Source: Alphaproteobacteria bacterium (GTDB lineage: Bacteria; Pseudomonadota; Alphaproteobacteria; Bin95). From it: 64,000 nucleotides of DNA. Below are positions 2,229 through 46,851 of the stretch, piece by piece. Made by a program: the position numbers and the translations under genes. The notes beneath the pieces are model-generated. The model was not told where the DNA came from. It searched no databases and saw nothing but the letters and a program-made list of their open reading frames with translations. Position 1 is the first letter of the stretch. Each line of letters opens with the position of its first letter. The stretch covers positions 1,120,001 through 1,184,000 of the forward strand of contig OZ219786.1 of NCBI GenBank assembly GCA_964291285.2, written 5' to 3'.

Positions 2229-3118
2229 ACCTTGCCCTTCCAGGGGACAAGGGACCGTTCGATCCGGCGCATGATGAGGTCGAAGACGAACGCCACAGCG
2301 CCAATGACGATGATGCCGAGAAAGACGATGTCGGTGGCGAGGAACCGGGCGGCATTCAGCACCATCACGCCGATCCCGGCCTTGGCGGCCACCATCTCGG
2401 CAGCGACCAGCGTCGTCCATCCGAACGCAATCGCGACACGCATGCCCGTCAGGATTTCCGGAAGCGCGCCCTTCAGCACGACCTGGCGCAGCACCTGCCG
2501 GTGGCTCGCCCCCATCGAGTAGGCGGCGTGGATCTGCTCGATGGACACCGAGCGCACGCCCGCGCGGGCGTTTATGGCGATCGGCGCGAAACAGGCGAGG
2601 TAAATCAGGAACAGCTTGCCGGCCTCGCCGATCCCGAACCAGATAATCGTGAGCGGCAGGTAGGCGAGCGGCGGGATCGGACGATAGAACTCGATGGGCG
2701 GATCGAAAATGCCGCGCGCATGGCGGTTCATCCCCATCGCGATGCCGATCGGGACCGCGGTTACGGTCGCAAGCGCAAAGGCGCCGAACACGCGGTAGAG
2801 GCTCCAGAGAATGTGCTCGTGCAGCGCGTGGTCGCTGAAGCCGAAGCACTTCGCCTCGACCTTCTCCATGCCGCCGACCGTAACCAGCAGCCGCTCGAAA
2901 TAATGGTCGGTGCAGGCGATCTTGGCGAACTTCGAGATCACCATTTCGGGCGCAGGCAGGAATAGGGGCCTGATCAGCCCGAGCTGGGTGATCGCCCACC
3001 AGCCCCCGAGCAGCAGGACGATGGTGACCGCGCTGATGACGGTGGCGGAGCCTCGCCCCGGCGCGCCGTACTGCTCCACCGCCTGCGCCGCGCGCCGTCT
3101 GAAAATTCCGACCTTCAT
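2225..3118 (-). CDS. tauC: Taurine/sulfonate ABC transporter permease (TauC-like)
   Basis: YRPIPPLAYLPL, AAYSMGAS EAA-loop region, GWTTLVAAEMVAA, PWKGK end. Confidence 0.85.
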   Translation of the reverse strand: MKVGIFRRRAAQAVEQYGAPGRGSATVISAVTIVLLLGGWWAITQLGLIRPLFLPAPEMVISKFAKIACTDHYFERLLVTVGGMEKVEAKCFGFSDHALHEHILWSLYRVFGAFALATVTAVPIGIAMGMNRHARGIFDPPIEFYRPIPPLAYLPLTIIWFGIGEAGKLFLIYLACFAPIAINARAGVRSVSIEQIHAAYSMGASHRQVLRQVVLKGALPEILTGMRVAIAFGWTTLVAAEMVAAKAGIGVMVLNAARFLATDIVFLGIIVIGAVAFVFDLIMRRIERSLVPWKGKV

Positions 3119-3915
3119 GGCGGCCCGTTGCCGGTCTCTTCGCCGTAGATGATCGACAGCACTTCCTCGCGAAGCGCGATGAAGTCGGACGACGACTTGA
3201 CCGCCCTCGCATTGCCGGTCTCGAAGAAACGGTTGCAGAAGTCGATATCGTAGGTGTGCGTAATCCGGCCCGGCCTGGGCGACATCACGATCAGCCGCGT
3301 CGCCATGAACAGGGCTTCCTCGACACTGTGGGTGATGAAGAACACCACCTTCCCGGTCTTGCTCCAAGCGTCCAGCACGAGCTCCTGCATGTTCTCCCGC
3401 GTGAAGGCGTCGAGCGCTCCCAGCGGTTCGTCCATGAGCAGCATGTCCGGATTGCAGGTCAGTGCCCGGGCAAGGCCGACGCGCTGCTGCATGCCCCCGG
3501 AGAGCTGGTAGATCGGATAGCGTTCGAAGTCCGAGAGGCCCACCAGGGCCAGATATTCGCGCGCCCGGGAAAGGCGTTCCTCCTTCTGGACGCCCTGGAG
3601 CTTCAGCCCGAATTCGGTGTTCTCCAGCACGTTGAGCCAGGGCAGCAGGGCGTGTTTCTGGAAGACCACGCCGCGGTCCGGTCCGGGGCCGCGGATCGGC
3701 GTGTCCTTGTGAAGGACCTCGCCCGAGGTCGGCTGCAGGAAGCCCGCTATGACATTGAGCAATGTCGTCTTGCCGCAGCCCGACGCGCCGAGAGCCACGA
3801 CGAACTCGTTGTCGCGGAAGTCCAGGCTCACATTGTCGAGCGCCCGGACGACGCCCTCGCCCTCCACCGCCGGAAACTCGACGGTCACGCGATCGAGACT
3901 GACGACTGCGGTCAT
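3115..3915 (-). CDS. tauB: Taurine/sulfonate ABC transporter ATP-binding protein (TauB-like)
   Basis: Walker A GASGCGKT, LSGGMQQR signature, LLMDEP Walker B. Confidence 0.88.
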   Translation of the reverse strand: MTAVVSLDRVTVEFPAVEGEGVVRALDNVSLDFRDNEFVVALGASGCGKTTLLNVIAGFLQPTSGEVLHKDTPIRGPGPDRGVVFQKHALLPWLNVLENTEFGLKLQGVQKEERLSRAREYLALVGLSDFERYPIYQLSGGMQQRVGLARALTCNPDMLLMDEPLGALDAFTRENMQELVLDAWSKTGKVVFFITHSVEEALFMATRLIVMSPRPGRITHTYDIDFCNRFFETGNARAVKSSSDFIALREEVLSIIYGEETGNGPP

Positions 3916-4009
3916 CGGTAAGCGGGCTTCATGCGAGGCGGGAGGCCCTGGCCCCGGCGGCCGGGGCCTCCCTGCGCAGCGTCCGGCGCTATCGTCCGCC
4001 GGCAGCCGT

Positions 4010-5008
4010 TCAGCAGCCGCCGTCCATCACCATCTGGGCGAATTTGGGCGTGGCGGAAGCAGAGTAGTCGTCGAGGACGCTGTCCAGCTTGCCCTGCGAC
4101 ACCAGGAACTCCGAGGCCGCCATCAATGCGCTCTGCACGCCGCCGCCGAGCCAGGTGGCCGACACCTGTTCCTCAAGCGTCGGATAGTCGTAGAGCGCGA
4201 GCACGCCGCCGACCTGGTCCGCATTGCCGGAAACCGCGTTGGCGATGCCCATCGCATTGTCCGTGCCCGGTCCGTAGGCGCCAGGGTTCATGCGGTAGTC
4301 CGCGTCCGCCGACGAGACCATCTTGACCCACTGGCAGGCGAACTCCGGGTTCTCGTCGGTGAAGCCCTTGCGCGCCACCATGGCGTCGAAGGTGGCCTTG
4401 CCCCAATTGCTCAGGTCGCCCGAGGTCAGCAGCACCCGGCCCTTTTCCTTCATGCGGCCGAGGGCCGGGTCCCAGACGAACCCGCCATTGATGTCGCCGC
4501 GTTCCCAGGCCGCCACCATGTCCGGCGGCGACATGTCGAGAACTTCGAGGTCCCCGGTCGGGATGTTGAACTGCTCCAGCGCAAACATCATGTGGAAATG
4601 GGTCGTGGAGCCGAAGGGAACCGCGATGGTCTTCCCCTTGAGGTCCTGCGGGGCGGTGACGGAGTCGTCCACGACCAGCGCTTCGGCATTGTTGATGTTG
4701 TCGTAGATGTAGATGACCTGGAGATCGACGCCCCGGCTGTAGCCCGCCGCCGTCGGCGACGAACCGTTGAGCGAGATGTCCACAGAGCCCGACGCCATGG
4801 CGTTGATGACCTCGGTACCGGAGGTGAATTTCACGAACTCGATGCTCTTGCCGCCGAGGCCGTTCGCCTTGAGTTCCTCCATCTCGGCCTTCCACGGCCC
4901 ATAGACGAGCTGGTAGCCGACCGTGACATCGGCCGCATGCGCATTCGCAGCCATGCCGGCCAGCGCGCAAACGGCTATGGCCGCGACCGAACGCAGATAT
5001 CTTTTCAT
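4010..5008 (-). CDS. tauA: Taurine ABC transporter substrate-binding protein (TauA-like)
   Basis: Signal peptide ending AHA-A, VTVGYQ, DLKGKTIAVPFGSTTHF, AAWERGDINGGFVWDP; GGAGGA RBS before ATG 5008. Confidence 0.82.
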   Translation of the reverse strand: MKRYLRSVAAIAVCALAGMAANAHAADVTVGYQLVYGPWKAEMEELKANGLGGKSIEFVKFTSGTEVINAMASGSVDISLNGSSPTAAGYSRGVDLQVIYIYDNINNAEALVVDDSVTAPQDLKGKTIAVPFGSTTHFHMMFALEQFNIPTGDLEVLDMSPPDMVAAWERGDINGGFVWDPALGRMKEKGRVLLTSGDLSNWGKATFDAMVARKGFTDENPEFACQWVKMVSSADADYRMNPGAYGPGTDNAMGIANAVSGNADQVGGVLALYDYPTLEEQVSATWLGGGVQSALMAASEFLVSQGKLDSVLDDYSASATPKFAQMVMDGGC

Positions 5009-20185: not shown

Positions 20186-21130
20186 ATGACGACGATGAGC
20201 CTGCCGCTGGACGACCGGACGCGCTTCGGGCTGATGACGCGCCTGCCGACGCCGGAGCTTGCCCGCAAGACGGTCGGGCTGCTGGACCGGCTGGAATTCG
20301 ACTCGATCTGGGTCGGCGATCATCTGGCCTTCACCTCGCCGATCCTGGACCCGTTCGTGCAGCTTTCCTATGCGGCCGCCCTGTCTTCGCGGCTCACCGT
20401 CGGAAGCGCCGTCTATCTGTTGCCGATGCGCCATCCGGCGGGGGTGGCGAAACAGGCGGCCTCGCTCGACCATCTGGCAGAAGGCCGGTTCGTCTTCGGC
20501 ATCGGCGTCGGGGGTGAGTTTCCGCCCGAATGGGAGCTTGCCGGCGTGCCGCACGGCGAGCGCGGCGCGCGCATGACCGAGTCCATCGAGGTGCTGCGCA
20601 AGCTCTGGACGGGCGAGCCGGTTGCCCATGAAGGCCGGTTCTTCCCCTTTTCGGAAGTCCACATGCAGCCGGCGGCGTTCACGCCCGGCGGGCCGCCAAT
20701 CTGGTGCGGCGGGCGCCAGCCGGCGGCGCTCAGGCGCGCCGGCCGGATGGCCGACGGCTACATGTCCTACGTCATCACGCCGGAGATGTTCTCGGACGCG
20801 CTCGACACCATCGCCACGGCGGCCGAAGAGGCTGGCCGCCAGGTCGGGACCTTCGGCACGTCCCACCTGCTCTTCTGCTGCATCGACGAGACCTATGAGA
20901 AGGCGCTCGACCGGGCGGCGGACCTGCTCTCGAAGCGCTATGCGATGGACTTCCGCAGGCCGGCCCGGCGCTATGCGGCGCTCGGCACGCCCGCCGACAT
21001 CGCGGAGAAGATCGCCGCCTTCCACAAGGCGGGCGTGCGCCACTTCAACCTCGACTTCATCGGCGACCAGCCCATGCGCATCGAGGGCCTGCACCGCTTC
21101 GCCGAAGAGGTCCGCCCGCTCATCGCCTGA
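20186..21130 (+). CDS. LLM class flavin-dependent oxidoreductase
   Basis: FDSIWVGDH, AKQAASLDHLAEGRFVFGIGVG, PIWCGG. Confidence 0.9.
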   Translation: MTTMSLPLDDRTRFGLMTRLPTPELARKTVGLLDRLEFDSIWVGDHLAFTSPILDPFVQLSYAAALSSRLTVGSAVYLLPMRHPAGVAKQAASLDHLAEGRFVFGIGVGGEFPPEWELAGVPHGERGARMTESIEVLRKLWTGEPVAHEGRFFPFSEVHMQPAAFTPGGPPIWCGGRQPAALRRAGRMADGYMSYVITPEMFSDALDTIATAAEEAGRQVGTFGTSHLLFCCIDETYEKALDRAADLLSKRYAMDFRRPARRYAALGTPADIAEKIAAFHKAGVRHFNLDFIGDQPMRIEGLHRFAEEVRPLIA

Positions 21131-21944
21131 GCGAAGCGGCGGCTTCCCGCGCGGCCCGTTGCCCGTCCGCCGCGGCCTCGGCAAGCGAACCGGCGCGGCG
21201 GACGGCGCCGGCGGCGAACACGCCCTCGCCCGCCAGCGCCGTTACGGGCTCGAGGCCGATGAAGACGAACACGCCCGAGACCTCCAGCCGCCGCCCGCCT
21301 GCGAGCGTGACGCCCTCGACGCCGTTCCCGCCGTCTATGGAAGCGACCTCGCTGTTCCAGTGGAAGCTGAACTTCGGGTCGGCCGCCGCCCGCGCCCCGT
21401 AGCCAGGCCTGGCCCGGAGCCGCCCGCCGCGCACGATCATCGCAATCGAGCGCGCATAGCCGGCCAGGTGCAGCGCCTCCTGCAGGGCCGCGTCGCCGCC
21501 GCCCACCACGGCCACGTCGGCATCCCTGAAGAAGCCGGCGTCGCAGAAGGCGCATTGCGACACGCCGCGCCCGGTCAGCGCCTCCTCGCCCGGCACGCCC
21601 AGCCGGCGGAGCCGCGCGCCAGTCGCCGCCACGACCGCCTTCGCCCGGTACCGCCCGCCGCCGGCCGTCTCGACGATCCGGCGGCGGCCCTGCGCGTGGA
21701 CGGCCTCCACATGCTCCTCGTGGAAGCGCACGCCCGCCGCCGCCAGCCGGTCCTTCCAGCCATGGGCCAGCTCGGAGCCGCCAACGGCAGCCGGCCAGCC
21801 GTCGAGCGCGCCCACATTGGAAACGAGGCCGCCATAGAGCCCCGACTCGAACAGCGCCACCGCGAGCCCCTGCGAAACCGCCTCGTCCGCCGCCGCGAGC
21901 CCCGCAACGCCGCCGCCGACCACGACAAGGTCAAGCGGCCTCAC
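21120..21944 (-). CDS. Thioredoxin reductase-like FAD/NAD(P)H oxidoreductase
   Basis: GGGVAG FAD motif, GVSQCAFCD redox CxxC, GGGDAALQEA NADPH motif; GTGA overlap with the upstream gene. Confidence 0.85.
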   Translation of the reverse strand: MRPLDLVVVGGGVAGLAAADEAVSQGLAVALFESGLYGGLVSNVGALDGWPAAVGGSELAHGWKDRLAAAGVRFHEEHVEAVHAQGRRRIVETAGGGRYRAKAVVAATGARLRRLGVPGEEALTGRGVSQCAFCDAGFFRDADVAVVGGGDAALQEALHLAGYARSIAMIVRGGRLRARPGYGARAAADPKFSFHWNSEVASIDGGNGVEGVTLAGGRRLEVSGVFVFIGLEPVTALAGEGVFAAGAVRRAGSLAEAAADGQRAAREAAASLRR

Positions 21945-23083
21945 GCGGCGATCTCCTTCACGATGCAGCAGGGCGGGAAGCCCCAGGACGGGAACCAGGC
22001 GCATTGCGGGATCGGGATGTCGCCGCCCGCAACGATCAGCACGATGTCCTCCGGCCGCGCGACGGCCGGCACGGCGTCTCCGCCCTCGGTCCATTCCGGC
22101 CAGCGCTCGCCGCCGATGAGGCGGGTGCGCAGCCAGAGCCTGTCGAAATCGGCGCGCGGCATCCGGCCCCGTCGCCAGAGCGCCTCCTTTGCGTCCACCT
22201 TCGACCAGCCCTGCCCCGCCAGCTCCTGCGCAACGAAGGGCGCCATCACCACCGCCGCCTTGCCCTCCCAAGCCATGTTGAAGGCCGAGGCGGCGGAGCC
22301 CATGACGCTTGCGAGGTCGTCCAGCCCGCCGGTGACATTGACCGCGGTCTCCGCCCGCATCAGCACCAGCACGTTCCCGCCGCCCAGCTCCTCATGCAGC
22401 GGCTCCCAGGGGTTGGCGGCTGCGTTCTCGGCCAGCACCATGGTGTAGCGCCCCGGCTGGCCGAGCCCGGCGAAGGAGACGGCCTCCGGCCAGCCGCCGC
22501 CGATATTGTTCATCACGAACCGGACCGCGCGCCCGATGGCGGCATTGGCCTGCCAGCCCGGCCCCAGCATGCCGAAGCCGGCATTCACCTCCAGCCTCTC
22601 GACGACCGGTCCGCTCAGCAGGATGAGCGGCGCCACGTTCTCGTCCGTCGTCTGCACGCCGCGCAGGTTGAAAACGGGGTCCGCGAGCGCCTCCACGGCA
22701 GCCACGACGACCGGGAAATGCTCCGGCGCACAGCCCGCCATGACGGCGTTGGCGGCCACGCGCTCCACCACCGCCACCCCCTTCAGCGGGTCGAGCTCGC
22801 CCAGGCTTTCGTTCCGCCCGCGCGCGCATCCGCGCAGCATGGCGTCCACCCGGTCCAAGGTCGGCGGCACGATGGGCAGGCCGTCTGTCCAGCCCCGCCG
22901 GTAGTAGAGCGCGCCCGCGTCCCCGCCGCGCAGCACCTCCACCCGCTGCCGGGGGAAGCGCCCGGCCTCTGTCAGCCGGGCGGTCATGCCCTTCTCGCGC
23001 GCCCGGCGGACGAGCGTGTCGTCGATCCACGCCCCGTTCGCCCGCTGCCCCGCCGGAATCAGCAGCCAGAGCGCCTCACCCAC
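21941..23083 (-). CDS. Paralog of the C-terminal domain of the UGSC protein (function unknown)
   Basis: GWTDGLPIVPPT, AANAVMAGCAPEHFPV, ANAAIGRA, LAEN motifs shared with 23091-24488; true start may be ATG 22987. Confidence 0.75.
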   Translation of the reverse strand: MGEALWLLIPAGQRANGAWIDDTLVRRAREKGMTARLTEAGRFPRQRVEVLRGGDAGALYYRRGWTDGLPIVPPTLDRVDAMLRGCARGRNESLGELDPLKGVAVVERVAANAVMAGCAPEHFPVVVAAVEALADPVFNLRGVQTTDENVAPLILLSGPVVERLEVNAGFGMLGPGWQANAAIGRAVRFVMNNIGGGWPEAVSFAGLGQPGRYTMVLAENAAANPWEPLHEELGGGNVLVLMRAETAVNVTGGLDDLASVMGSAASAFNMAWEGKAAVVMAPFVAQELAGQGWSKVDAKEALWRRGRMPRADFDRLWLRTRLIGGERWPEWTEGGDAVPAVARPEDIVLIVAGGDIPIPQCAWFPSWGFPPCCIVKEIAA

Positions 23084-23090
23084 GCCGCGT

Positions 23091-24812
23091 TCAGCCGGCG
23101 GCCAGCCGGGCTTCCCAGTCCGCCGGGAGTTCGATCTCGCGGGTCACCGGGAAGCCGAGAATGCCGTTATGCGCGAACACATAGGCGTTGGTGCACAGCG
23201 GGTCGCCCGCGACCGCAATCCCGAAATCGTCGGGCTCGCAGACGATGGGCACCATCCGGTCCGGGTCGTCGGACTCGGCGAAGACCTCCGGCGCCCTGCC
23301 GAGCGCCACCAGCTCCGTCAGCGAGCGGTGGCCCGGCACCAGGTTGGTCCAGCCCGAGATATACCGCTCGAACTTCCGGGCCGGCATCCGCGCATGCTCG
23401 TAGAGCCAGTCGCGCATGTCGTCCTTGGAGAGCCCCGAACCGGCGATGGTCTCGGCCAGGATCGGCGAGTGCACCAGCAGCGGCCGGTAGGTGCCGGTCG
23501 CCATGCCGACGGTGAAGACCAGCTCCCAGCCCGACTGCTTGACCAGCGCGTCGGCCAGATAGGGCAGCATCTCCTCCGCCCGGCGGCCGAAGACGGACGT
23601 CACCACATCGCCGCCGGTATAGCGGGAGACGGTGACGGCGTTGGCGCCTTCCGGCAGGCCCATGTCGGTCGCCGTGTTCGGCCAGCCGATGCGCTTCAGC
23701 ACGTCCTCGTTCTCGGCGAGCGCCACCCGCCAGGTGTTGCCGAAGGTGCCCTTGTCGGTCTCGTGCGGGATGAAGCCCGCGACATTGCGCAGATAGAGCC
23801 GCCAGAAGCGCCCGACCGAGGTGTTGGCCTGGAACCCGTCCCTGAGCGCGCCCTGCTCGTAGTTGAAGCCGAGCGCCTTCGCGATCGGGCCGTTGACGGT
23901 AATCAGCGTCTCCGCCCCCGGCGTGTTGCCGGAATGCTCGACGCCGTATTCCGGGTCCGCCATCGCCTCGGCCAGCGCCACCAGCACCGGCATGTATTCC
24001 GGCCGGCAGCCGGCCATGACGCCGTTTGCGGCCACATTCCAGACCGTCGCCGCGCGGTTGTCCGGCGGCAGCTTGCCGAGCACGGTGTCCGCAGGCCGGT
24101 CCGAGAAGGCCAGGAAACGCTCGATCTTCTCCACCGAGGGCGGCACCACCGGCAGCCCGTCCGACCAGCGGTTCTCGTAGAAGAGGCGGTTCACCTCCTC
24201 GAAACTGCCCTCGAACACGATGTCGCGCGCCTCGGGCTCGACGGTCTCCACGGCCTCGTCCGGCGGCTCGGTCAGGTTCGCGATCACCGCGTCCAGGGTC
24301 TCGCCCAGCACGTTGGAGCGGAGCTCGTTGTCGGTCTGCGTATCGACATGGCCGGCCACCGGCGCGAGCGGCAGGTTCGGCATGCCGAGCCCGACGGCCG
24401 TGGTGCCCGCCTGGCCGACAAAGCCCTCGCAGACCAGCGATGAGGACGGCACGCCCGCCGCTTCGGCCACTGCGCTCACCCGCAACACGGCGGGAGTGCA
24501 GGAGCCTCAGCAGCCCATCCCGGAGATGACGGCGTCGGCCTTGAGTTCCTTCAGCCGGTCCGGCAGCGAGGCGATGATCTCGCGCTCCTCGTCGCCGTGC
24601 GTGGAGCCGAAGACGTCGTAGCCGATGAAATCGACGCCCGGATAGCGTTCCGCCAGCCCGTCGGCCAGCATCGGGAAGATTTCGTCGCCCCGGAACAGGT
24701 AGTCCCAGAGGAAGGCGACGCGCTTGCCCTCCAGATTGTCGAGGCGCGGCGCCAGCGCCTGCAGTTCCTGCGCCTTTTCGCCCCGGGGCCAGACGACCGC
24801 ATAGTCGGCCAT
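23091..24812 (-). CDS. UGSC-family selenoprotein (about 573 aa, Sec at codon 102)
   Basis: ORFs 24507-24812 and 23091-24488 are in one frame, separated only by TGA at 24507-24509, reading ISGMGC-U-GSCTPAVLR; SECIS-like hairpin follows. Confidence 0.8.
24471..24500 (-). promoter_or_regulatory. Putative bacterial SECIS element
   Basis: UGCACUCCCGC-CGUGUU-GCGGGUGAGCGCA hairpin starting 6 nt after the UGA, with G as second loop base; folded by hand. Confidence 0.6.
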
Positions 24813-24914
24813 GGGTTCGTTCTCCCGCTTGAATTGCCGTCGCCGCGAGGCTGCGACCGGAGGCCTCCCGCGTCAAGGCTGCCGCAGGCGCACATCTCCG
24901 GAAGCCCCCTGCGA

Positions 24915-25192
24915 CGTGTCATGGAATGTCATGTTTTGTCATGTTCCGGGGGCGGAATGTCATGTTCTGTCACGGTCCGGTCTGCGCTCCGGTCGCCTGG
25001 GTTGCTTCGGATCGTTCGTTCCCGGGGCATCTCGGCCTCCTTTCCGTTGCCGGTTTCCACCGCCGGTTCGTCCCTTGCGGCGGGACCCTAGTTTCGCGCG
25101 TATCGCGCCCGCCTGTCCGCGCGCGTCGCCGCCGGCGCGGTTCGCGCGCCTGATTGCGCCCGTGCGCGCGACGCGGGCGCACAGGCGCACCT
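24915..25192 (-). repeat. Dispersed intergenic element, copy C, distal part (interrupted by IS110)
   Basis: Minus strand: GCGCAATCAGGCGCGCGAACCGCGCCGGCG, GATACGCGCGAAACTAGGGTCCCGCCGC, CATGACAAAACATGACATTCCATGACA; close match to copy D. Confidence 0.82.
24929..25030 (-). CDS. Putative 33-aa peptide inside repeat copy C (MPRERTIRSNPGDRSADRTVTEHDIPPPEHDKT)
   Basis: AAGGAGG Shine-Dalgarno 5 nt before ATG; same EHDKT-stop ending as the copy D ORF. Confidence 0.35.
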   Translation of the reverse strand: MPRERTIRSNPGDRSADRTVTEHDIPPPEHDKT

Positions 25193-25408
25193 TGTATCTC
25201 TCCGGATCGTTGTTGCAGCTATAGTCGCAACAGCGGGAGCGGACGGGAGACCGCTAGCCCGACTTCCGCAACTCGGCTTGAGAATCGACTGATTTGACGG
25301 TTTTCCGGCGCGAGAAGTGTCGGATTTCGGTGCAGTACCTCTCGGGACCGGCTTGTAGTGCCGACCTACCCCCTTGATCGGGCTGGCGAAGATCCGGACG
25401 CTGCGCTG

Positions 25409-27157
25409 ATGTTCGTGCGCTGCAAGAGACGCTTCAAGGACGGCAAGGAGCACCGCTACTGGAGCGTTGTGGAGAACGTCCGGGTCCACGGCGGTCGGGT
25501 TGTTCAGCGTCAGGTGCTCTATCTCGGGGAGATCAACGACAGCCAGCGAGCGGCGTGGTGCCGCTCGATCGAGGTGGTGGAGGGCAAGTCGCGATCACGG
25601 CAGATGGCGCTGTTTCCCGAGGACCGGGAGGCGCCGGCGCTGACTTGCGAAGTGGTGAAGATCGACCTCTCGCAGGTGGCGCTTCACGACCCGCGCCAGT
25701 GGGGGGCGTGCTGGCTGGCGCTGTCCTTGTGGGACCGCCTGGACCTGGACCGCTTCTGGGAAGAGCGGCTGCCGGCGAGCCGGCAAGGCACGCGGTGGCT
25801 GGACATCCTGAAGATCCAGGTCTGCTACCGGCTGATCGACCCGGGCAGCGAGTGGCGCCTTCACCGTCACTGGTATGAGCACAGCGCGCTTCGCGATCTT
25901 CTGGGTGGCGAGCGGGCGATCGCCGACGACACACTCTATCGCTGTCTCGACAAGCTGCTGGCGCACAAGCAGGGCTTCTTCTCGTTTCTGCGCGACCGCT
26001 GGGCGACGCTGTTCGAGGCGCGCTTCGACGTGCTGCTCTACGACCTGACCTCGACCTACTTCGAGAGCGATCCGCCGTTCGATGACAAGCGCCGCTTCGG
26101 CTACAGCCGGGACAAGCGGCCCGACTGCGTGCAGGTGGTGATCGCCCTGATCGTTACGCCGCAGGGCTTTCCGCTGGCCTATGAGGTGATGCCGGGCAAC
26201 ACCTCCGACGACACCACGCTGGCGGCGTTCCTCAAGAAGATCGAGGATCAGTATGGCCGCTCCGAGCGGGTGTGGATCATGGACCGCGGCATCCCCACCG
26301 AGGAGACGCTGGCCGCGATGCGCGAGGGCGAGGCGCCGGTGCGCTACCTGGTGGGCACGCCCAAGGGCCGGCTGACGCGGCTCGAGAAGGTGTTCCTGGG
26401 CCTGCCCTGGCAGGAGGTGCGCCAGTCCGTGACTGTCAAGCTTCTGGTCGAGGATGGCGAGCTCTACGTCCTGGTGCGCAGCGAGGGGCGGCAGGTGAAG
26501 GAACGCGGCATGCGCCGGCGCCGGCTGAAGAGGCTGTGGCGTCGATTGGCCGAGTTGCAAGGGCAGTCGAACAGCCGGGATCAGTTGTTGCTCAAGCTCG
26601 GCGCCGCCAGGAAGGAGGCCGGCCGGGCCTGGAGCCTGGTCGACATCACCGTGCCCGGGACCGACAGCGAACTCGCCGCCAACGGCTTCTCATTCCGCCT
26701 GCAGCGCGACCGGCTGCGCCAGGTCCGCCGCCGCGAGGGCCGTTACCTGCTGCGATCCAACATGGTCGCCGAAGACCCCGCCACGCTGTGGCATCTGTAC
26801 ATGCAGCTCGTCGAGATCGAGCAGGCGTTCAAGGAACTCAAGCACGACCTCGCGATCCGCCCCATCTTCCATCAGCGCCAAGAGCGCATCGAGGCGCATA
26901 TCTTCGTCTCGTTCATCGCCTACTGCCTGCTGGTGACCCTGAAGAACCTCGCCCGGCCGCGCGCCCCGGGCCTCACCCCACGCGCCATCCTTGAGGCCTT
27001 CGCCACCATCCAGATGGTGGACGTCCATCTGCCAACCACCGACGGCCGGCACCTCGTCCTGCCGCGCCACACCCGGCCGAACAAGGAGCACGAGCTACTG
27101 CTGCAACAGCTCGGCATGACCTGGCCGCAGCAACCCGCACCCCGGATCTCCGCCTGA
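25409..27157 (+). CDS. IS1634 family DDE transposase
   Basis: LYDLTSTYFE, FGYSRDKRPD, IMDRG, IEQAFKELK, RIEAHIF. Confidence 0.93.
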   Translation: MFVRCKRRFKDGKEHRYWSVVENVRVHGGRVVQRQVLYLGEINDSQRAAWCRSIEVVEGKSRSRQMALFPEDREAPALTCEVVKIDLSQVALHDPRQWGACWLALSLWDRLDLDRFWEERLPASRQGTRWLDILKIQVCYRLIDPGSEWRLHRHWYEHSALRDLLGGERAIADDTLYRCLDKLLAHKQGFFSFLRDRWATLFEARFDVLLYDLTSTYFESDPPFDDKRRFGYSRDKRPDCVQVVIALIVTPQGFPLAYEVMPGNTSDDTTLAAFLKKIEDQYGRSERVWIMDRGIPTEETLAAMREGEAPVRYLVGTPKGRLTRLEKVFLGLPWQEVRQSVTVKLLVEDGELYVLVRSEGRQVKERGMRRRRLKRLWRRLAELQGQSNSRDQLLLKLGAARKEAGRAWSLVDITVPGTDSELAANGFSFRLQRDRLRQVRRREGRYLLRSNMVAEDPATLWHLYMQLVEIEQAFKELKHDLAIRPIFHQRQERIEAHIFVSFIAYCLLVTLKNLARPRAPGLTPRAILEAFATIQMVDVHLPTTDGRHLVLPRHTRPNKEHELLLQQLGMTWPQQPAPRISA

Positions 27158-27237
27158 CGGCACACGGCGCCGCCTCTCCGTTCGCCGCCTTGTAGTGCCG
27201 ACCCTCGGGGAGACGATCAAGGCTATTCAATGAGTTA

Positions 27238-27369
27238 TACCAACGGTCGTTGATTGGAACCTATAGCAGAGCCTCCCTCCGCAGCTCGCCCCCTGAGCCG
27301 AGGCCTCCTACTGCAAGAGGTAATCTCCGCCGAGAGAGGCTAATCGGTTCTTATCTGTGGCCGGTGGTA
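27238..27369. mobile_element. 132-bp MITE, copy 1
   Basis: Ends TACCAACGGTC and GGCCGGTGGTA, TTA on both sides; the empty site GAGTTAGCATCC is present in IS1634 copy 2. Confidence 0.9.
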
Positions 27370-27384
27370 TTAGCATCCTCATGA

Positions 27385-28452
<1,068 letters not shown>

Positions 28453-28469
28453 CCGACAACACAGTCGCT

Positions 28470-28650
28470 CTCCTGTCCGCTCTCGCCGGGGGTTTTGCGG
28501 CCCCCCAGCCATGCTTCCCTGCGCAGAAAAGCGGAAAGGCGGCCCCGGGAGCCGCCTTTCTCTCATGCCTATTCTACACCATTTCGCTGAAAGTCAAGCT
28601 CATGAGGGAACAAAAGATGGAAATATCGGGTGATTTTCTTACAACCCGTT
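28470..28650 (-). repeat. Dispersed intergenic element, copy C, promoter-proximal part
   Basis: Minus strand: TTGACT-N15-TAGAAT, hairpin GAAAGGCGG...CCGCCTTTC, AAAACCCC; collinear with the heads of copies A, B and D. Confidence 0.72.
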
Positions 28651-28789
28651 GAACCGGCGGGACAATCTCATGCCGGCGGCCCCGATTTGGGCTCATGTCC
28701 TATTCTCGTCATGCCCGGCCCCGGAACAGGTCCGACGATATGGGGACGGGCATGACGGACGACGCCCGCGCCACCCTCCCCGGAACGGC

Positions 28790-30172
28790 TCAGGCGGCGT
28801 ATTTCCGGACCAGCTCGCGCGCTCGCGCGGCCGCGTCTTCGGGAATCGTATGGCGGGGCGGGAAGTCGCCGGCGGGCCTGGTCGCGTCGATCATCATCTT
28901 GGCTGTCAGCCCGTCATGGTTGGACGGGTCGAGGATCGCGCCCATGCAGTTCTTCAGGATGTCCACATCCCGGTCCGCCTGCATGCGGGTGCAGACGGCC
29001 CACATCACGTCCCGGTCGCTCGCGATATCGACATCGTCATCGACGACGATGGCCAGTTTCAGGCTGAGGTCTTCGCCGAGCGCAGCCGCGGCCGCGTTCT
29101 TCGCCTGGCCGGGGGCGGGATTCTTCATGGCGATATAGACATGCATCCGGCAGGTGCCGGATTTCGGCATCGCGACGCCGGTGACATTGGGATAGTTCTG
29201 GCGCAGCACCTTGAGCAGCCGCGCCTCCATCGGCACCGCCAGAAGGCCGGTATGCTCGTCGGAAATGCCCGGCACGATATCCTGGTAGATCGCGTCCTCG
29301 CGGTGCAGGATCGCCGAGACCTCGATGACATGGCGGGTCGAGCGCGCCGAGGCATAGCCGGTGAACTCGGCGAACGGCCCCTCGTCCGCCTCCTCGCCGG
29401 GGACGATACGGCCCTCGATGACGAACTCGGCGAAGGCCGGCGCCTCGACCGGCACTGTCACGCCCCGGACCAACTCAAGAGGCCGCCCCATGAAGCCGCC
29501 GGCGACGGCGTATTCGTCGGCGTCCATGGGCCCCTTCCAGAGGCCGCTGCCAAAGGCGAACAGCGGATGGTGCCCGATGACGATGGACACCGGGATCGAC
29601 TCGCCCCGTTCGGCGGCGCGCTGCGCATAGTTCCAGAGATGCCGGCGGCTGTGCAGGCTGGTGCCGAAACGGGTCCGGCCCATGACCTGCAGCCGGTGGT
29701 AGCTGGCATTGCGCACCCCGCTGTCGGGGTCTCGCGCAACGACGATGCCGTTGGTGACATAGCGGCCGCCGTCCTCCGCGAAATGGTTCATGATCGGCAG
29801 CGCGCCGAGATCGACATCGCCTCCCGTTACCACCCTGTCCAGAACGGGGCCCGTTTCCAGGACCACCGGCTCGATGGTCCCGTCGCCGAGCCCGCTCCAG
29901 GTCCCGATCAGCTCCGTCTCGCCGACGCCGAGCGCCCGGGCGTAGCGGCGGCGGTCGCCGAAAAGGTTGGCGACGACGGGGAAGGGCGAGTCCCCGACCC
30001 TGTCGAAGCGGATCACCGGCGCGCGGCCCTGCCTCTCCAGTTCCATCGCCACTGCCGTTGCGTCGAAGTCGAGGGCGACCGGCTCCGGAATGCGCAGGAT
30101 GCTTGCCGGGTCCGCCGCTTCCAGGTCTTCCAGGAAGGATCTGAGGTCGAGCGTTCTTTCGTTCGGTCGCAT
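28790..30172 (-). CDS. UbiD family prFMN-dependent decarboxylase (divergent paralog)
   Basis: DLRSFL start, NASYHRLQV, EFVIEG, EGPFAEFTGY, IVVDDDVD. Confidence 0.9.
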   Translation of the reverse strand: MRPNERTLDLRSFLEDLEAADPASILRIPEPVALDFDATAVAMELERQGRAPVIRFDRVGDSPFPVVANLFGDRRRYARALGVGETELIGTWSGLGDGTIEPVVLETGPVLDRVVTGGDVDLGALPIMNHFAEDGGRYVTNGIVVARDPDSGVRNASYHRLQVMGRTRFGTSLHSRRHLWNYAQRAAERGESIPVSIVIGHHPLFAFGSGLWKGPMDADEYAVAGGFMGRPLELVRGVTVPVEAPAFAEFVIEGRIVPGEEADEGPFAEFTGYASARSTRHVIEVSAILHREDAIYQDIVPGISDEHTGLLAVPMEARLLKVLRQNYPNVTGVAMPKSGTCRMHVYIAMKNPAPGQAKNAAAAALGEDLSLKLAIVVDDDVDIASDRDVMWAVCTRMQADRDVDILKNCMGAILDPSNHDGLTAKMMIDATRPAGDFPPRHTIPEDAAARARELVRKYAA

Positions 30173-30283
30173 GGGCTGGCTCCCCTGCCGGCTTCCCGTC
30201 CGTTCTTCCGACGGCGAAGGCGGTTGCTATACACTATGCGCGCCCGGCAGGGGCGTTGAACCTTAGCGATCCGGAGACCTCTC

Positions 30284-30679
30284 ATGCCGCTCACCCTTCA
30301 GGAAGCCAACCGTGTCGCCGCGGCCGCCATCGCGCATGCGGAGAGTCTCGGCATCCTCATTTGCGTTTCGGTCTCGGATGCCGGTGGGCGTCTCGTCGCC
30401 TTCCAGCGCATGGACGGCGCGATCTGGGCCGCCGTCTATGGCTCGCAGGGCAAGGCCGCCGCATCAGCCGCCTTCGGCCGGCCGAGCGGCGACCTGACCG
30501 AACGCGCGGACCACCCGACCTTCCGGGGGATCGCTGCGGCCGACGGCGGGCGCATGATTTTCGGACAGGGCGGCGTGCCGATCCTCCGCGACGGACAGGT
30601 CATCGGCGCCTGCGGCGTCGGCGGCGGCACCGGGGAGGAGGACGAGGACTGCGCGCGCGCCGGCGCGGCCTGCCTCTGA
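30284..30679 (+). CDS. GlcG/HbpS family heme-binding protein
   Basis: VSDAGGRLVAFQRMDGA, GGVPI, IGACGVGG, DEDCA. Confidence 0.9.
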   Translation: MPLTLQEANRVAAAAIAHAESLGILICVSVSDAGGRLVAFQRMDGAIWAAVYGSQGKAAASAAFGRPSGDLTERADHPTFRGIAAADGGRMIFGQGGVPILRDGQVIGACGVGGGTGEEDEDCARAGAACL

Positions 30680-30740
30680 ACGCCGGTCCGCATCCGGGGG
30701 GCCGGCGAAGCGTTCGGGCGGGACATGCCGGAACGAAAGA

Positions 30741-30828
30741 TGGTGCCCAGGAGAAGACTCGAACTTCCACGGCCTTGCGGCCACAGGTACCTGAAACCTG
30801 CGCGTCTACCAAATTCCGCCACCTGGGC
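30741..30828 (-). tRNA. tRNA-Leu(CAG)
   Basis: GCCCAGG acceptor stem, anticodon loop TTCAGGT, long variable arm, GTTCGAGT T-loop, encoded CCA. Confidence 0.96.
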
Positions 30829-30901
30829 ATGGGGCCGGCGGGAGACGGCGTGATAAGAGGAAGGCGCACATCTGTCAACGACCGGACAGGACAATCATCC
30901 C

Positions 30902-32386
30902 GTGACCGATCGTTCCCTTCGGGACTTCGTCGCCCGGCTGGAAAATGCGGGCCGGCTCCGGCGCATATCCGCTCCCGTGTCGCCCGAACTGGAGGTGACC
31001 GAAATTCACCGCCGCGTGCTGCAGGCGGGCGGGCCGGCACTCCTTTTCGAGAACCTGCGCCGCCCCGACGGCAGCCCCTGGGGCATGCCCGCGCTCGCCA
31101 ACCTGTTCGGCACGGTGGAGCGCGTCGCCTGGGGCATGGGGCGCGAGCCGGAGGGGCTGCGCGAAATCGGTGAAACCCTGGCCTTCCTCCGCCAGCCGGA
31201 GCCCCCGGGCGGCTGGCGCGAGGCGGTGGGCATGCTGCCGCTGCTCAGGACCATGCTGTCCATGGCGCCGCGCACCGTCCGGCGCGGGCCCGTGCAGGAA
31301 ACCGTGCTGGAGGGGGGCGACATCGACCTCGGGCGCTTCCCGGTCCAGACCTGCTGGCCGGACGAGCCCGCGCCTCTCATCACATGGCCGCTGGTGGTCA
31401 CAAAGGGGCCGGGGCGCACGGCCGAGGACGATTTCAACCTCGGCATCTACCGGATGCAGGTGACGGGCCGGAACACGACGCTGATGCGCTGGCTGAAGCA
31501 TCGCGGCGGCGCCGGCCACCATGCGCGCTGGGCGGCAGAGAAGCGCGAGCCGCTGCCGGCCGCCGCCGTGATCGGCGCCGACCCGGCCACCATTCTGGCG
31601 GCCGTCACGCCCTTGCCCGAAACGCTCTCGGAATACCGCTTCTCCGGCCTCCTGGCGGGCCGGCGCCTCGACCTCGTCGATTGCCGCACCGTGCCCCTCA
31701 AGGTGCCGGCCGAGGCCGAGATCGTGCTGGAGGGCCATGTCTCGCTCGACGACTATGGCGACGAGGGGCCTTACGGGGACCACACCGGCTACTACAACGC
31801 GGTCGAGCGCTTCCCCGTCTTCACCGTCTCGGCGGTCACCATGCGCCGCGAGCCGATCTACCTCACCACCTATACCGGCCGGCCGCCGGACGAGCCGTCC
31901 GTGCTGGGCGAGGCGCTGAACGAGGTCTTCATCCCGCTGCTGCAGGCGCAGTTCCCGGAAATCCGCGACTTCTGGCTGCCGCCGGAGGGCTGCTCCTACC
32001 GCGTGGCCGTGGTCTCGATCCGCAAGGCCTATCCCGGCCACGCCAAGCGGGTCATGTTCGGCGTCTGGTCCTATCTGCGCCAGTTCATGTACACCAAGTG
32101 GGTGATCGTCGTGGACGACGACATCGACGCGCGCGACTGGAAGGACGTCGTCTGGGCCGTTTCCACCCGCATGGACCCCGCCCGCGACATAGTGCTCGTC
32201 GAGAACACGCCCATCGACTATCTCGACTTCGCCAGCCCCGAGAGCGGCCTCGGCTCCAAGATCGGCCTCGACGCCACCGACAAGTGGCCGCCCGAGACCC
32301 GGCGCGAATGGGGCCGCAGGCTCGCCATGAGCGAGGAGGTCAGCGCGCGCATTGCCGCGAGGTGGGAGGAGTTCGGGCTGGATTGA
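30902..32386 (+). CDS. ubiD: UbiD 4-hydroxy-3-polyprenylbenzoate decarboxylase
   Basis: [56 protein letters not shown]. Confidence 0.93.
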
Positions 32387-38621: not shown

Positions 38622-39664
38622 GGCACTCTGCCTCCCCGAATCCGGCGCAGACATTAGAGGCATTGCCCCATCGTTCCAAACCCGTGCCGGCCGCATCAGG
38701 GCGAGGCGGCCTTCGCCGGAGAACCGCCCCAACGGTAGAGCGGCGGTGCGGACCGCTGAGGCGGTCGGTCTTTCCACGCCCTTCAGGCGGCTTCGCGTTG
38801 CTCGGCCTGCCGCATGAATTCGATCAACAGGAAAAATACCAGTTCGACGATATTGGTGATCCTGAGAAGGCCGGACCGTTCCTCCCGGCTGAGTCCGGCG
38901 TTGTCCCGCAGATACATGTCCCGGACATCCCGCATGAACCCGCCCCGGTCGACGATCCGGGCCGCATAGAACGGGTGTTCCGCCGCGTCTCCGGCGGCCT
39001 GCGCTTCCTGGACGATGACGAGGAGCACCGCATCGAGTCCCTCGACGACGCTGCTCTTCAGCCCCGTCAGGCCGGAGCGGTCCGGCACCGAGTTCAACAT
39101 CTTGCACAGATCGACGACCTGTTCATCGAGCCAGACGAGGATTCTCTGCCGGACGAGCACCGAATTGAGATGCTCCGTCCACTCCGCGGGATGATGCGTT
39201 TTCGCTTCTTCCAGAAATTCCTCGATCTGCGATATCAGAAGACCGTTGGCCCGGTTCAACTCCGAGACTGCCTCGTTGCTGCGCACCGCGCCGAGATATT
39301 CGGACAGTCCCGCAAGAACGCGGTACTGCTCCAGTTCGGCAAGTATCAGCGCCATATCGAGATCGTTGAACGCCCGGTCGTGAATGTAGCGGGTCTGCGA
39401 CATCCGCTCCAGCCGGGTCATCGGCCAGAGCTTTTCGTACAGCCGCACCGCCGGGTCCAGCACCAGGAAAAGGAGGGCGGCCGGAATGATGTTGGTCAGG
39501 ACGATGAACAGTCCCATCTGCCGGCCGACCTCCATGTCGGTCGCCAGCAACGCCGCCTTCATCAACGGAATGTCCGAGTGGATTTCGACAAAATGAACCG
39601 GCATGAAAATCGCCAGGGACACGATGTTCACCAACACCTGATCTCGACTTTGTACAAAATTACC

Positions 39665-39952
39665 TCACGTCCATGTCCAGAAGATCTCGTTTTTGGCGAT
39701 TTCGTCGAGGGCCTGTTCGAGCGGGAGCACGATGCCCCCCATGTCTCCGACGTCCTGCCAGGACTGGCGCCAGGACCAGTAGCGCACCCTCATCTTGTCA
39801 CCTGAGCCTTTCGGCTGGAGCCTTGCGATCGGTGCCTGCGTGGCCGTGAGATACAGATTGTAGCCGCCGCGCACCCTGGTGACCGTCACGCCCCCGCCCC
39901 TGGATTTGTTGAACGCTTCGATGCGCGCCAGACAGGGGTCGGATGCGGCCAT
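39665..39952 (-). CDS. 95-aa passenger protein inside the IS (DUF3024-like by recalled motifs)
   Basis: PIARL...RYWSWRQSW...LEQALDEI...IFW pattern; fills the left part of the IS, divergent from the transposase. Confidence 0.55.
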   Translation of the reverse strand: MAASDPCLARIEAFNKSRGGGVTVTRVRGGYNLYLTATQAPIARLQPKGSGDKMRVRYWSWRQSWQDVGDMGGIVLPLEQALDEIAKNEIFWTWT

Positions 39953-40061
39953 GAAGCAGTGATATCGGATTGGATGGCTTCTGTCGCTGCAGCGATGCTG
40001 ATTCACCCGGTCGCATGCGGGCGCCCTTGCATGCCGGATGCTTCTGGATTCGAAGGTCGTC

Positions 40062-41444
40062 ATGACACATTTCGACGACCCTTCGAGCGCCATCGGCGAT
40101 CCGGTTCCGCCGTTCCTGATCGACTGGCTGGAGCCCTTTCGAGGCGCCTTCTCATCCCCGACCTGGCGGCTGGTGGCGGTTCTGGTCATGGGAGCGTTGC
40201 TGGCGCCGGGCAAGAGAACCGTGTCGGCCTGCCTGCGGGTGACCGGGCGGGCGATGTGCGAGACATTCTCGTCCTACCATCAGGTTCTCAATCGCGCCCG
40301 CTGGGACCCGCGTGACCTTTCACGCCGGCTCGTGCTCGTGCTGGTGGCGCGGCTTGCCGGGCAGGGACCGATCATCATCGGGCTCGATGACACCATCGAG
40401 CGCCGCTGGGGCGCGCGTATCAAGGCGCGCGGCATCTATCGCGACCCGGTGCGTTCCAGCCATGGCCATTTCGTCAAGACCAGCGGGCTGCGCTGGCTCA
40501 GCTTCATGCTGCTTGTCCCGCTGCCCTGGTCGCCGGGCATCAGGGCCCTGCCCTTCCTGACCATCCTGGCCCCGTCCGAACGCTTCGCCGCCAGGCAAGG
40601 CCGGCGTCACAAGCAACTCACCGACTGGGCGCGACAGGGCATGCTTCAAATCCTTCGCTGGGTCCCGCAACGCGCGATCGTCTTCGTCGCCGACAGCAGT
40701 TTCGGAACCCACGAACTCGCCTGGCGCATCGGACAGCGCGCAACCCTCATCAGCAGGCTGAGGCTCGATGCCAACCTCTTCGCGCCCCCGCCGCCGCGCG
40801 ACCCGAACAAACGCGGTCGACCCCGGCAAAAGGGGCCGCCCCTGCCCAAGCTCCAGACCCGCCTTGACGACCCCGATGCCCGCTGGACAAGCATCACGCT
40901 TCCGCGCTGGTACGGAAGTTCGAAGGAAAAGACACTCCAGATCATCTCCGATACCGCGCTCTGGTATCGTCCCGGCACACCTCCCAAGGCCATCCGATGG
41001 GTGCTGGTGCGAGACCCGGAAGGCGAGCGGGACCCGCAGGCGTTCTTCTGCACCGACACCAACATGGAGCCGGCCAAGATCATCGCCACCTTCGTGCGGC
41101 GCTGGCAGGTCGAGGTCACCTTCCAGGAACTGCGCGCCCATCTCGGGCTCGAAACACAACGCCAGTGGTCACACGCGGCGATCGCACGAACCACCCCCGT
41201 CCTCTGCGGGCTCTACAGCCTCGTCTGCCTCTGGGCCACAGACGTGCTCTCGACAAACCACCTGTCCTACGCCGCCGCCTGGTACCAGAAAACCAGCGTC
41301 ACATTCTCCGATGCAATCGCGGCCATACGATGCCAACTCTGGCTTGGAAACAATTTATCGCGCTCCCCGCCACACCGGGAACCAAACATAATTCCGCCCG
41401 ACAAGATAAGGCGGATGCAGTACGCCCTCTGCTTCGCAGCATAA
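40062..41444 (+). CDS. IS701-like DDE transposase
   Basis: GLDDTIERR, VADSSF, RRWQVEVTFQELRAHLG. Confidence 0.88.
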   Translation: MTHFDDPSSAIGDPVPPFLIDWLEPFRGAFSSPTWRLVAVLVMGALLAPGKRTVSACLRVTGRAMCETFSSYHQVLNRARWDPRDLSRRLVLVLVARLAGQGPIIIGLDDTIERRWGARIKARGIYRDPVRSSHGHFVKTSGLRWLSFMLLVPLPWSPGIRALPFLTILAPSERFAARQGRRHKQLTDWARQGMLQILRWVPQRAIVFVADSSFGTHELAWRIGQRATLISRLRLDANLFAPPPPRDPNKRGRPRQKGPPLPKLQTRLDDPDARWTSITLPRWYGSSKEKTLQIISDTALWYRPGTPPKAIRWVLVRDPEGERDPQAFFCTDTNMEPAKIIATFVRRWQVEVTFQELRAHLGLETQRQWSHAAIARTTPVLCGLYSLVCLWATDVLSTNHLSYAAAWYQKTSVTFSDAIAAIRCQLWLGNNLSRSPPHREPNIIPPDKIRRMQYALCFAA

Positions 41445-46616: not shown

Positions 46617-46748
46617 TACCAACGGTCGTTGATTGGAACCTATAGCAGAGCCGCCCTCCGCAGCTCGCCTCCTGAGCCGAGGCCTCCTACTGCAAGAGGT
46701 AATCTCCGCCGAGAGAGGCTAATCGGTTCTTATCTGTGGCCGGTGGTA
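46617..46748. mobile_element. 132-bp MITE, copy 2
   Basis: Differs from 27238-27369 at 2 positions; TTA at 46614-46616 and 46749-46751; interrupts the FN3 frame ...TTTY-TVTGL. Confidence 0.92.
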
Positions 46749-46851
46749 TTATACCGTCACCGGCCTTAAAAACGGCACCGAATATACCTTCCAAATTCGA
46801 GCATCTAACGGCCCGAACGGGCCTTGGTCGGATGAAAAATCCGCGACTCCC

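Follow-up and report, generated by a model that had tools for sequence, protein, structure and literature searches.

We analyzed a 64,000-nt stretch of DNA, here called the window, from contig OZ219786.1 of an Alphaproteobacteria bacterium (assembly GCA_964291285.2, positions 1,120,001 to 1,184,000). Its minus strand carries a putative selenoprotein gene of the UGSC family (23091..24812), followed by two genes that would form a redox operon with it. The selenoprotein gene starts with an ATG at 24812, with GGGAGA 8 nt 5′ of this codon, and consists of 573 codons and a TGA stop. In a mechanical list of open reading frames (ORFs), the gene is split into an ORF of 101 amino acids that ends in GMGC (24812..24507) and an ORF of 465 amino acids with a GTG start (24488..23091). 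Both lie in the same frame, and when the TGA that separates them is read as selenocysteine (Sec, U), they yield a single 573-residue product. This TGA (24507..24509, −) is the sole internal TGA of the gene and places Sec at residue 102, within a C-U-G-S-C motif in the context ...AVISGMGC-U-GSCTPAVLRV.... Homologues span 98–99% of the read-through product.

The gene that follows encodes a stand-alone paralogue of the selenoprotein's C-terminal domain (21941..23083, −; 380 amino acids) and has a GTG start 7 nt past the selenoprotein stop. The paralogue aligns with selenoprotein residues ~193–536 (32% identity, E = 2e-34) and has no counterpart to the first 190 residues, which form the redox N-terminus. 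The third gene (21120..21944, −) encodes a flavoprotein resembling thioredoxin reductase (TrxR), with a CAFC motif and matches to the Pyr_redox_2 and TrxR models. Its GTG at 21944 overlaps the TGA of the paralogue gene in the sequence GTGA (21944..21941); from this start the protein is 274 amino acids long, compared with 383 amino acids for the longest ORF in the mechanical list. Converging on these genes, and overlapping the TrxR-like gene by 11 nt, is a plus-strand gene (20186..21130) for an oxidoreductase of the LLM class, predicted to be F420-dependent from its match to TIGR03619 (178.6 bits; cut-off 166.9). As TGA is also the terminal stop of the selenoprotein, paralogue, and TrxR-like genes, the organism otherwise reads TGA as stop. 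An initial annotation, made from the letters of the sequence, had described one frame interrupted by a single TGA, a downstream paralogue lacking the redox N-terminus, a CAFC reductase coupled through GTGA, and a converging LLM oxidoreductase; the reading frames and model matches bear out this layout.

We searched for relatives of the selenoprotein by scanning one genome per species. The scan matched 605 stretches, of which 495 were confirmed relatives, and we kept the best 80 loci, so that close relatives of a Sec form are over-represented. Since one of these (L073, the 80th locus) ends before the Sec site, counts at the site are out of 79. All 79 loci have an in-frame TGA at the Sec position and a Cys directly before it. 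The first 100 residues are conserved in frame in each of the 77 loci that have the N-terminal part on the contig. According to their record titles, the loci span the Alpha-, Beta- and Gammaproteobacteria, Dehalococcoidia, and Acidimicrobiia, and also come from Methylomirabilota, Nitrospinota, Dormibacterota, Myxococcota, and Verrucomicrobiia.

We also examined the best 120 database proteins. Twelve of these, of 578–607 amino acids, cover 98–99% of the query, and one is 861 amino acids long. A check proposed in the initial annotation, for Cys at the TGA position in homologues, gave a uniform answer: all 12 full-length proteins have Cys there, and these Cys forms are single polypeptides, most with the motif A-C-G-S-C. 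The match to the Pfam UGSC domain (PF24696) runs across the TGA. Judged from this pattern of conservation, UGA-102 is almost certainly read as Sec.

A hairpin resembling a selenocysteine insertion sequence (SECIS) element lies just downstream of the codon (24465..24506, −; conserved core 24479..24494). An outer helix, GGCU/GGCC, begins directly 3′ of the TGA, and a CUGC/GCAG helix begins 6 nt 3′ of it, at the spacing the initial annotation had given for the hairpin. A 5-bp upper stem, CCCGC/GCGGG (24494..24490 with 24483..24479), begins 12 nt 3′ of the TGA and closes a 6-nt loop, CGUGUU (24489..24484), with G in its second position. When we compared 75 sequences (74 distinct), the upper stem and the loop CGUGNU were invariant among the distinct sequences, while the closing pair covaried, being GC in 44, AU in 20, GU in 2, and unpaired in 8. 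Cells of the alignment were paired in 85.6% of cases in the proposed structure, compared with 26–48% when the 3′ partners were slid by 1–3 columns.

The codons that encode the stem are also constrained at synonymous sites. We examined codons −80 to +200 around Sec, taking columns that were at least 95% conserved and that specify amino acids with at least four codons. Third-position entropy was zero in only four of these 62 columns (Pro+5, Ala+6, Val+7, and Arg+9), all of them in the stem, and ranged from 0.5 to 1.9 bits in the remaining 58. With zero entropy confined to stem codons, the selection acts on the RNA rather than on the protein. We infer that this stem-loop directs Sec insertion and is under RNA-level selection.

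A scan of the window for other in-frame TGAs with coding signal on both sides recovered only adjacent genes that share a frame by chance. One such candidate (38786–40273, −) comprises two same-frame ORFs split by a TGA at 39667..39665, with coding-like composition on both sides. Its read-through product matches no Pfam family, and a transposase gene on the opposite strand overlaps the upstream ORF; we attribute the arrangement to chance adjacency. Among the relatives, locus L059 contains a second, distant gene (2874–4403, −; 30% identity) with the UGSC domain and the C-terminal domain. This copy has an in-frame TGA in the context GVGH-TGA-STCAP, giving H-U-S-T-C, and M-A-G-A in place of M-A-G-C. 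From its sequence, it looks like a further Sec-containing subfamily with a different motif.

The Sec codon lies within the UGSC domain, which covers residues 6–181 (24270..24797, −) and matches model positions 2–171 of 172 in PF24696 with 98.2 bits, compared with a cut-off of 25. The U/C-G-S-C motif of the family is present as GMGC-U-GSC, with the TGA aligned to the Cys of homologues. NCBIfam NF041046, a 147-position profile for the short UGSC equivalog, gave 41.6 bits, below its cut-off of 125. By these profile scores, the window protein is a member of a fused, longer UGSC subfamily and not the short stand-alone form.

In a structure model of the full-length protein (pLDDT 80, pTM 0.81, built from 13 sequences), the UGSC domain consists of five consecutive β-α units, the third of which carries Sec where its helix begins. 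In this model the topology reads as flavodoxin-like rather than as the thioredoxin fold suggested in 2008. A fold search of the Protein Data Bank (PDB) with the full-length model returned no match at E ≤ 0.001; the matches of high probability (0.97–0.99) were flavodoxin-like proteins, such as quinone reductase 2, with target-normalised TM scores of 0.37–0.43, and we take them to cover the N-terminal domain of the model. A search of the ESM Atlas returned only unnamed or automatically named clusters, with "thioredoxin family protein" as the automatic name of the nearest ones.

UGSC-containing proteins are an established selenoprotein family, as the initial annotation had stated. Passages of a study of Olavius describe them as a selenoprotein of unknown function, present in Hyphomonas neptunium and metagenomes (PMC1976440). 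Passages of a survey of the Global Ocean Sampling (GOS) data describe a "UGSC/Unknown_1" fusion in Figure S1A and count 255 Sec forms and 21 Cys forms of UGSC (Zhang and Gladyshev, 2008; PMC2398784). In corresponding passages on an updated marine GOS data set, UGSC-containing proteins make up 8.2% of selenoprotein genes (PMC9402790). Passages of a 2022 review still list UGSC without a function (PMC9312934), and those of a 2026 review place it among selenoprotein families that are largely uncharacterised in function (PMC13188914).

The window protein shares with the UGSC/Unknown_1 family (PF24696) the U-G-S-C motif and the domain. It also has the fusion to a conserved domain without known function, and Sec is strongly preferred to Cys in both. 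As we found no essential difference from the family, the protein is a member of it, and the selenoprotein itself is not new, having the form described in 2008. The gene had initially been called a hidden selenoprotein; this holds in the sense that gene callers misread it, but not in the sense of novelty, since the fusion was described in 2008. The paralogue, the TrxR-like neighbour, and the alternative fusions described below go unmentioned in the passages of the UGSC-selenoprotein literature that we consulted, a set that excludes subscription journals and supplements.

To describe the surroundings of the gene in relatives, we used the same 80 loci. Of the 71 loci whose downstream sequence extends for 1400 nt or more, 41 have the paralogue on the same strand, no further than 800 nt downstream. 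Where the downstream sequence extends for 2600 nt or more (68 loci), the order selenoprotein-paralogue-TrxR-like occurs in 21, and in another 7 the TrxR-like gene directly follows the selenoprotein gene with no paralogue between. A TrxR-like gene is present within 5 kb, on either side or strand, in 37 of the 80 loci. It lies just upstream in three loci, including that of the cultured Steroidobacter flavus CGMCC 1.10759 (L070), and on the opposite strand in two. When we considered only the 47 loci flanked by 5 kb on each side, the paralogue was present anywhere in the locus in 26, the TrxR-like gene within 5 kb in 26, and at least one of the two in 36. This pattern of linkage makes it quite probable that the three genes function together.

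The LLM gene was also considered as part of the system. Its orthologue, at 93–96% identity, was present only in six near relatives (L001–L005 and L053), and LLM-class genes at 25–42% identity occurred within 5 kb in 13 of the 47 loci, at varying positions. On this distribution, the LLM gene is probably a neighbour rather than part of the unit. Minor neighbour families included TauD, an ABC ATPase, 2-hydroxyacid dehydrogenase, TctC, hydantoinase A and B, and CoA-transferase III, among others. Together with transporters, such variable neighbours may hint at organic nitrogen and sulfur compounds and at carboxylates.

Two further observations concern the arrangement of the operon among near relatives. 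The selenoprotein gene and the paralogue gene are separated by 378–925 nt in L002, L004, and L005, compared with 7 nt in the window and ~20 nt in L001 and L053; this is an inserted segment between the two genes. In addition, synteny with the near relatives ends 65–140 nt upstream of the selenoprotein start and resumes at 28470–28673 (L053, L004). The gap of ~3.5 kb (window positions 24880–28470) contains DDE_Tnp_1 and IS110-type transposase genes (25358..27157, +, and 27385..28449, +), and insertion sequences upstream of the operon may have displaced its promoter.

The C-terminal domain of the selenoprotein, "Unknown_1," covers residues ~193–573 (23094..24236, −) and carries the motifs W-x-D-G-L-P-x-x-P-P and N-G-V-M-A-G-C. 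Neither Pfam (to E ≤ 10) nor NCBIfam contains a family that matches this domain or the paralogue, and a single-protein search and two profile searches found no meaningful solved homologue by sequence. A structure model of the paralogue was of good quality (pLDDT 87, pTM 0.90). Its best fold match was a class I fumarate hydratase subunit, which we rejected as a relative at E = 1.2e-3 and TM scores of 0.25–0.30.

The fused copy of the domain and the paralogue share 39 columns that are at least 95% conserved. These include W-x-D-G-L-P and N-x-V-M-A-G-C, as well as polar D, N, R, E, T, and C residues. On this conservation, the residues look like an active site that is kept in both copies.

A profile of the paralogue matched 6,166 representative clusters at E ≤ 0.001, and we scanned the best 150 against Pfam. 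Thirteen have a near-full N-terminal UGSC domain, and 29 start inside the UGSC domain just past Sec (model positions 98–126 onwards), as expected of ORFs called after the TGA. UGSC is matched only in part (model positions 70–170) by one more protein, P0229. In four others (P0136, P0147, P0265, and P0273), which we examined as protein sequences only, UGSC is at the C-terminus, and the ORF ends at model position 92, where Sec falls, with ...G-D or ...A-D as the final residues. Four proteins of 709–741 amino acids (P0137, P0160, P0200, and P0221) contain a tandem duplication of the C-terminal domain. Two (P0163, which is also among the 29, and P0208) have a C-terminal FeThRed_B domain (PF02943), the family of the catalytic subunit of ferredoxin:thioredoxin reductase (FTR), with CPC and CHC motifs in both. 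In all, 52 of the 150 have one of the listed features, and the remaining 98 have no Pfam domain. Separately, P0019, a protein of 861 amino acids, joins the post-TGA part of the selenoprotein to the paralogue.

These architectures bear on how the parts may cooperate. The occurrence of UGSC at either end argues that it works together with the C-terminal domain whichever end it occupies, and the tandem and fused copies argue that C-terminal-type domains act in pairs. The fusions further argue for a disulfide-reductase module as the electron source of the unit; this module would be flavin-based here and iron-sulfur-based elsewhere.

The candidate flavin-based module is the TrxR-like protein. Its best PDB matches are TrxRs (E = 6e-44), and CAFC aligns with the redox-active CATC of these structures. 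The protein also has the two GxGxxG/A motifs for dinucleotide binding. Each of the 38 linked TrxR-like homologues contains a single CxxC, in forms such as CAWC, CAFC, CAYC, and CDWC. At the site of the G-D motif, which is defining for the FAD domain of TrxR, the window flavoprotein has G-A-V-R, and by eye G-A/S/G-x-R occurs there in all 38 linked homologues. Most of the linked proteins (32 of 38) are ~296–309 residues long, and those of L001–L005 and L053 have 273–288 residues, similar to the 274 of the window protein.

Taken together, we somewhat favour a reading in which both ORFs belong to a single gene for a UGSC-family selenoprotein in fused form, set within a redox operon that operates as a relay. 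The selenoprotein, the paralogue, and the flavoprotein would be produced from one translationally coupled operon. The flavoprotein would take electrons from NAD(P)H via FAD to its CxxC, and this CxxC would reduce the selenenylsulfide of the UGSC domain (C101-U102-G-S-C105). The UGSC selenolate/thiol pair would then pass electrons to, or act on, a substrate held by paired C-terminal-type domains, with the invariant Cys of N-G-V-M-A-G-C as a candidate redox partner in the window lineage. We give even chances to the order of this relay, from flavoprotein to UGSC to substrate. A relay from reductase to UxxC that feeds a heteromeric enzyme had been proposed in the initial annotation. The conserved gene order and the fusions fit the relay, but the heteromer is not obligatory, as shown by the seven loci without an intervening paralogue.

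What the Sec residue does at the end of the relay is a further question. The strong preference for Sec, together with the loss of the M-A-G-C Cys in some relatives, makes us lean towards Sec acting on the substrate directly rather than only relaying electrons. A bolder proposal, and to us a doubtful one, is that the UGSC protein, the paralogue, and the flavoprotein together make up an unrecognised NAD(P)H-driven selenoenzyme in which Sec would be the catalytic nucleophile on a small molecule, bound by a pair of domains whose fold has no solved relative.

Several observations weigh against the relay reading or parts of it. Within the 64-kb window, we found none of selA, selB, selD, or tRNA-Sec. 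Folding of the hairpin in the window alone was only modestly favourable (−41.9 kcal/mol, z = −2.1, with 6 of 200 shuffles as good), and no Rfam family matched it at gathering thresholds or at E ≤ 10. The CxxC in the UGSC domain is missing from 5 of 13 full-length representatives, and the M-A-G-C cysteine is replaced by Ala or Gly in P0208, P0273, and the second copy of L059. Thus, neither redox site is universal in the superfamily. The direct succession of selenoprotein and TrxR-like genes in seven loci, with the paralogue absent, indicates that heteromer formation is dispensable there, and both the paralogue and the TrxR-like gene are missing from the surroundings in 11 of the 47 loci flanked by 5 kb on each side. 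Clustering of the neighbouring genes gave no other family that points to a substrate in more than 9 of the 80 loci. The flavoprotein scored 191.3 bits against the model for thioredoxin-disulfide reductase (TIGR01292), compared with a cut-off of 343.45, and lacks ~29 residues that are found in 32 linked homologues between ...GLEP... and ...GVFAAGAVR.... Since this deletion is common to the six near relatives, at 89–95% identity, it is inherited rather than a recent break.

We weighed the relay against other explanations. The operon could encode a protein-thiol or peroxide antioxidant system, in which UGSC would serve as the catalytic redoxin or peroxidase and the TrxR-like protein would recycle it. 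The C-terminal domains would then act as scaffolds or regulators instead of forming an enzyme for a small molecule. According to passages of the GOS survey and the 2026 review, most bacterial UxxC selenoproteins are redoxin-like (PMC2398784; PMC13188914). The existence of the short stand-alone UGSC form modelled by NF041046 fits such a system, as does the automatic name of the nearest Atlas clusters. However, the 39 columns of at least 95% conservation in the C-terminal domain and the paralogue include polar residues, a pattern typical of an active site, and the C-terminal domain is kept in ~6,000 representative clusters. Its duplication, in tandem or as an adjacent paralogue, would also be less natural for a scaffold than for an oligomeric enzyme. 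We regard the antioxidant system as unlikely.

Another explanation concerns the source of electrons. The TrxR-like protein may not be the reductant of UGSC, acting instead on the same substrate or on another carrier, while the general thioredoxin or glutathione system reduces UGSC. Consistent with this, 43 of the 80 loci have no TrxR-like gene within 5 kb, and the protein departs from the FAD-contacting G-D motif of TrxR and scores below the TIGR01292 cut-off. Yet the linkage is kept in several phyla and in several arrangements (after the paralogue, after the selenoprotein, upstream, and on the opposite strand), the CxxC is retained in every one of the 38 linked proteins, and an FTR-β-like module is fused to the same domain elsewhere, pointing to a dedicated reductant. 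These considerations leave a separate reductant quite improbable.

Finally, it is very hard to credit that the TGA is a true stop, which would leave a 101-residue peptide and a 465-residue protein from the GTG at 24488, or a nonsense pseudogene: ORF calling yields exactly these two ORFs, 107 of the best 120 database proteins (432–469 amino acids) start past the TGA and cover the post-TGA part only, and the Sec machinery is absent from the window, but the TGA is in frame at all 79 sites with both flanks conserved as protein, where a nonsense mutation would not persist, termination there would divide the Pfam UGSC domain, the Cys forms are single polypeptides, the downstream stem is under RNA-level constraint, and shortened database entries are the usual product of automatic gene calling at Sec codons (compare passages of PMC1976440, according to which all selenoprotein genes identified in that dataset were misannotated).

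We therefore retain the reading of a single fused UGSC selenoprotein gene in a redox operon. Its practical corollary is a caution for database users, as those 107 entries are cut at the Sec codon. The comparative picture, with a TrxR-like partner, a paralogous domain, and alternative fusions, makes the question of UGSC function testable. If the proposed selenoenzyme is real, a selenoprotein family that ranks among the most abundant in the sea would gain a function, and in lineages with the FTR-β-like fusion ferredoxin would power the same chemistry.

Elsewhere in the window, we noted a 2036-residue ORF (46723–52833, +) in which fibronectin type III repeats, matched in 10 stretches with 493 bits, make up most of the length. 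Two genes for UbiD-family decarboxylases lie on opposite strands (28790..30226, −, and 30857..32386, +), with an HbpS-like gene and tRNA-Leu(cag) between them (window positions 28790–32386).

How does the window system compare with known selenium and thiol systems? The flavoprotein shares with TrxB (TIGR01292) the TrxR-type CxxC and the GxGxxG/A motifs. It differs in falling below the TIGR01292 cut-off, in having G-A-V-R in place of the G-D motif of TrxR, and in its ~29-residue deletion. Its genomic partner also differs, being the UGSC protein rather than a thioredoxin.

A second comparison is with animal thioredoxin reductase, which has a C-terminal Gly-Cys-Sec-Gly redox centre. The window protein has G-C-U-G, with Cys likewise directly before Sec. 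In contrast to the animal enzyme, the motif lies inside the protein, where a helix begins, and C105 after it offers a third redox candidate. In most Cys forms, A-C-G-S-C takes its place. The likeness implies no homology.

A further parallel, in overall design, is with GrdB and PrdB of the glycine and D-proline reductase systems, whose operons include thioredoxin-system genes along with those of the selenoenzymes. The window operon likewise combines a UxxC selenoprotein, a predicted multi-subunit substrate-binding part, and an adjacent gene of the thioredoxin-reductase type. The GOS table classes PrdB as UxxC (PMC2398784). We detected no sequence similarity, as GRDB (PF07355) gave no match to the N-terminal domain even at E ≤ 10, and the window system differs from these reductases in having neither a separate thioredoxin gene nor a pyruvoyl proprotein. 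Its hosts differ as well, as the UGSC loci, judged from their record titles, come mostly from lineages of aerobic heterotrophs. The likeness is one of design, an analogy only. If the proposed selenoenzyme is real, this design would parallel that of the glycine and proline reductases but would operate in widespread aerobic heterotrophs of sea and soil.

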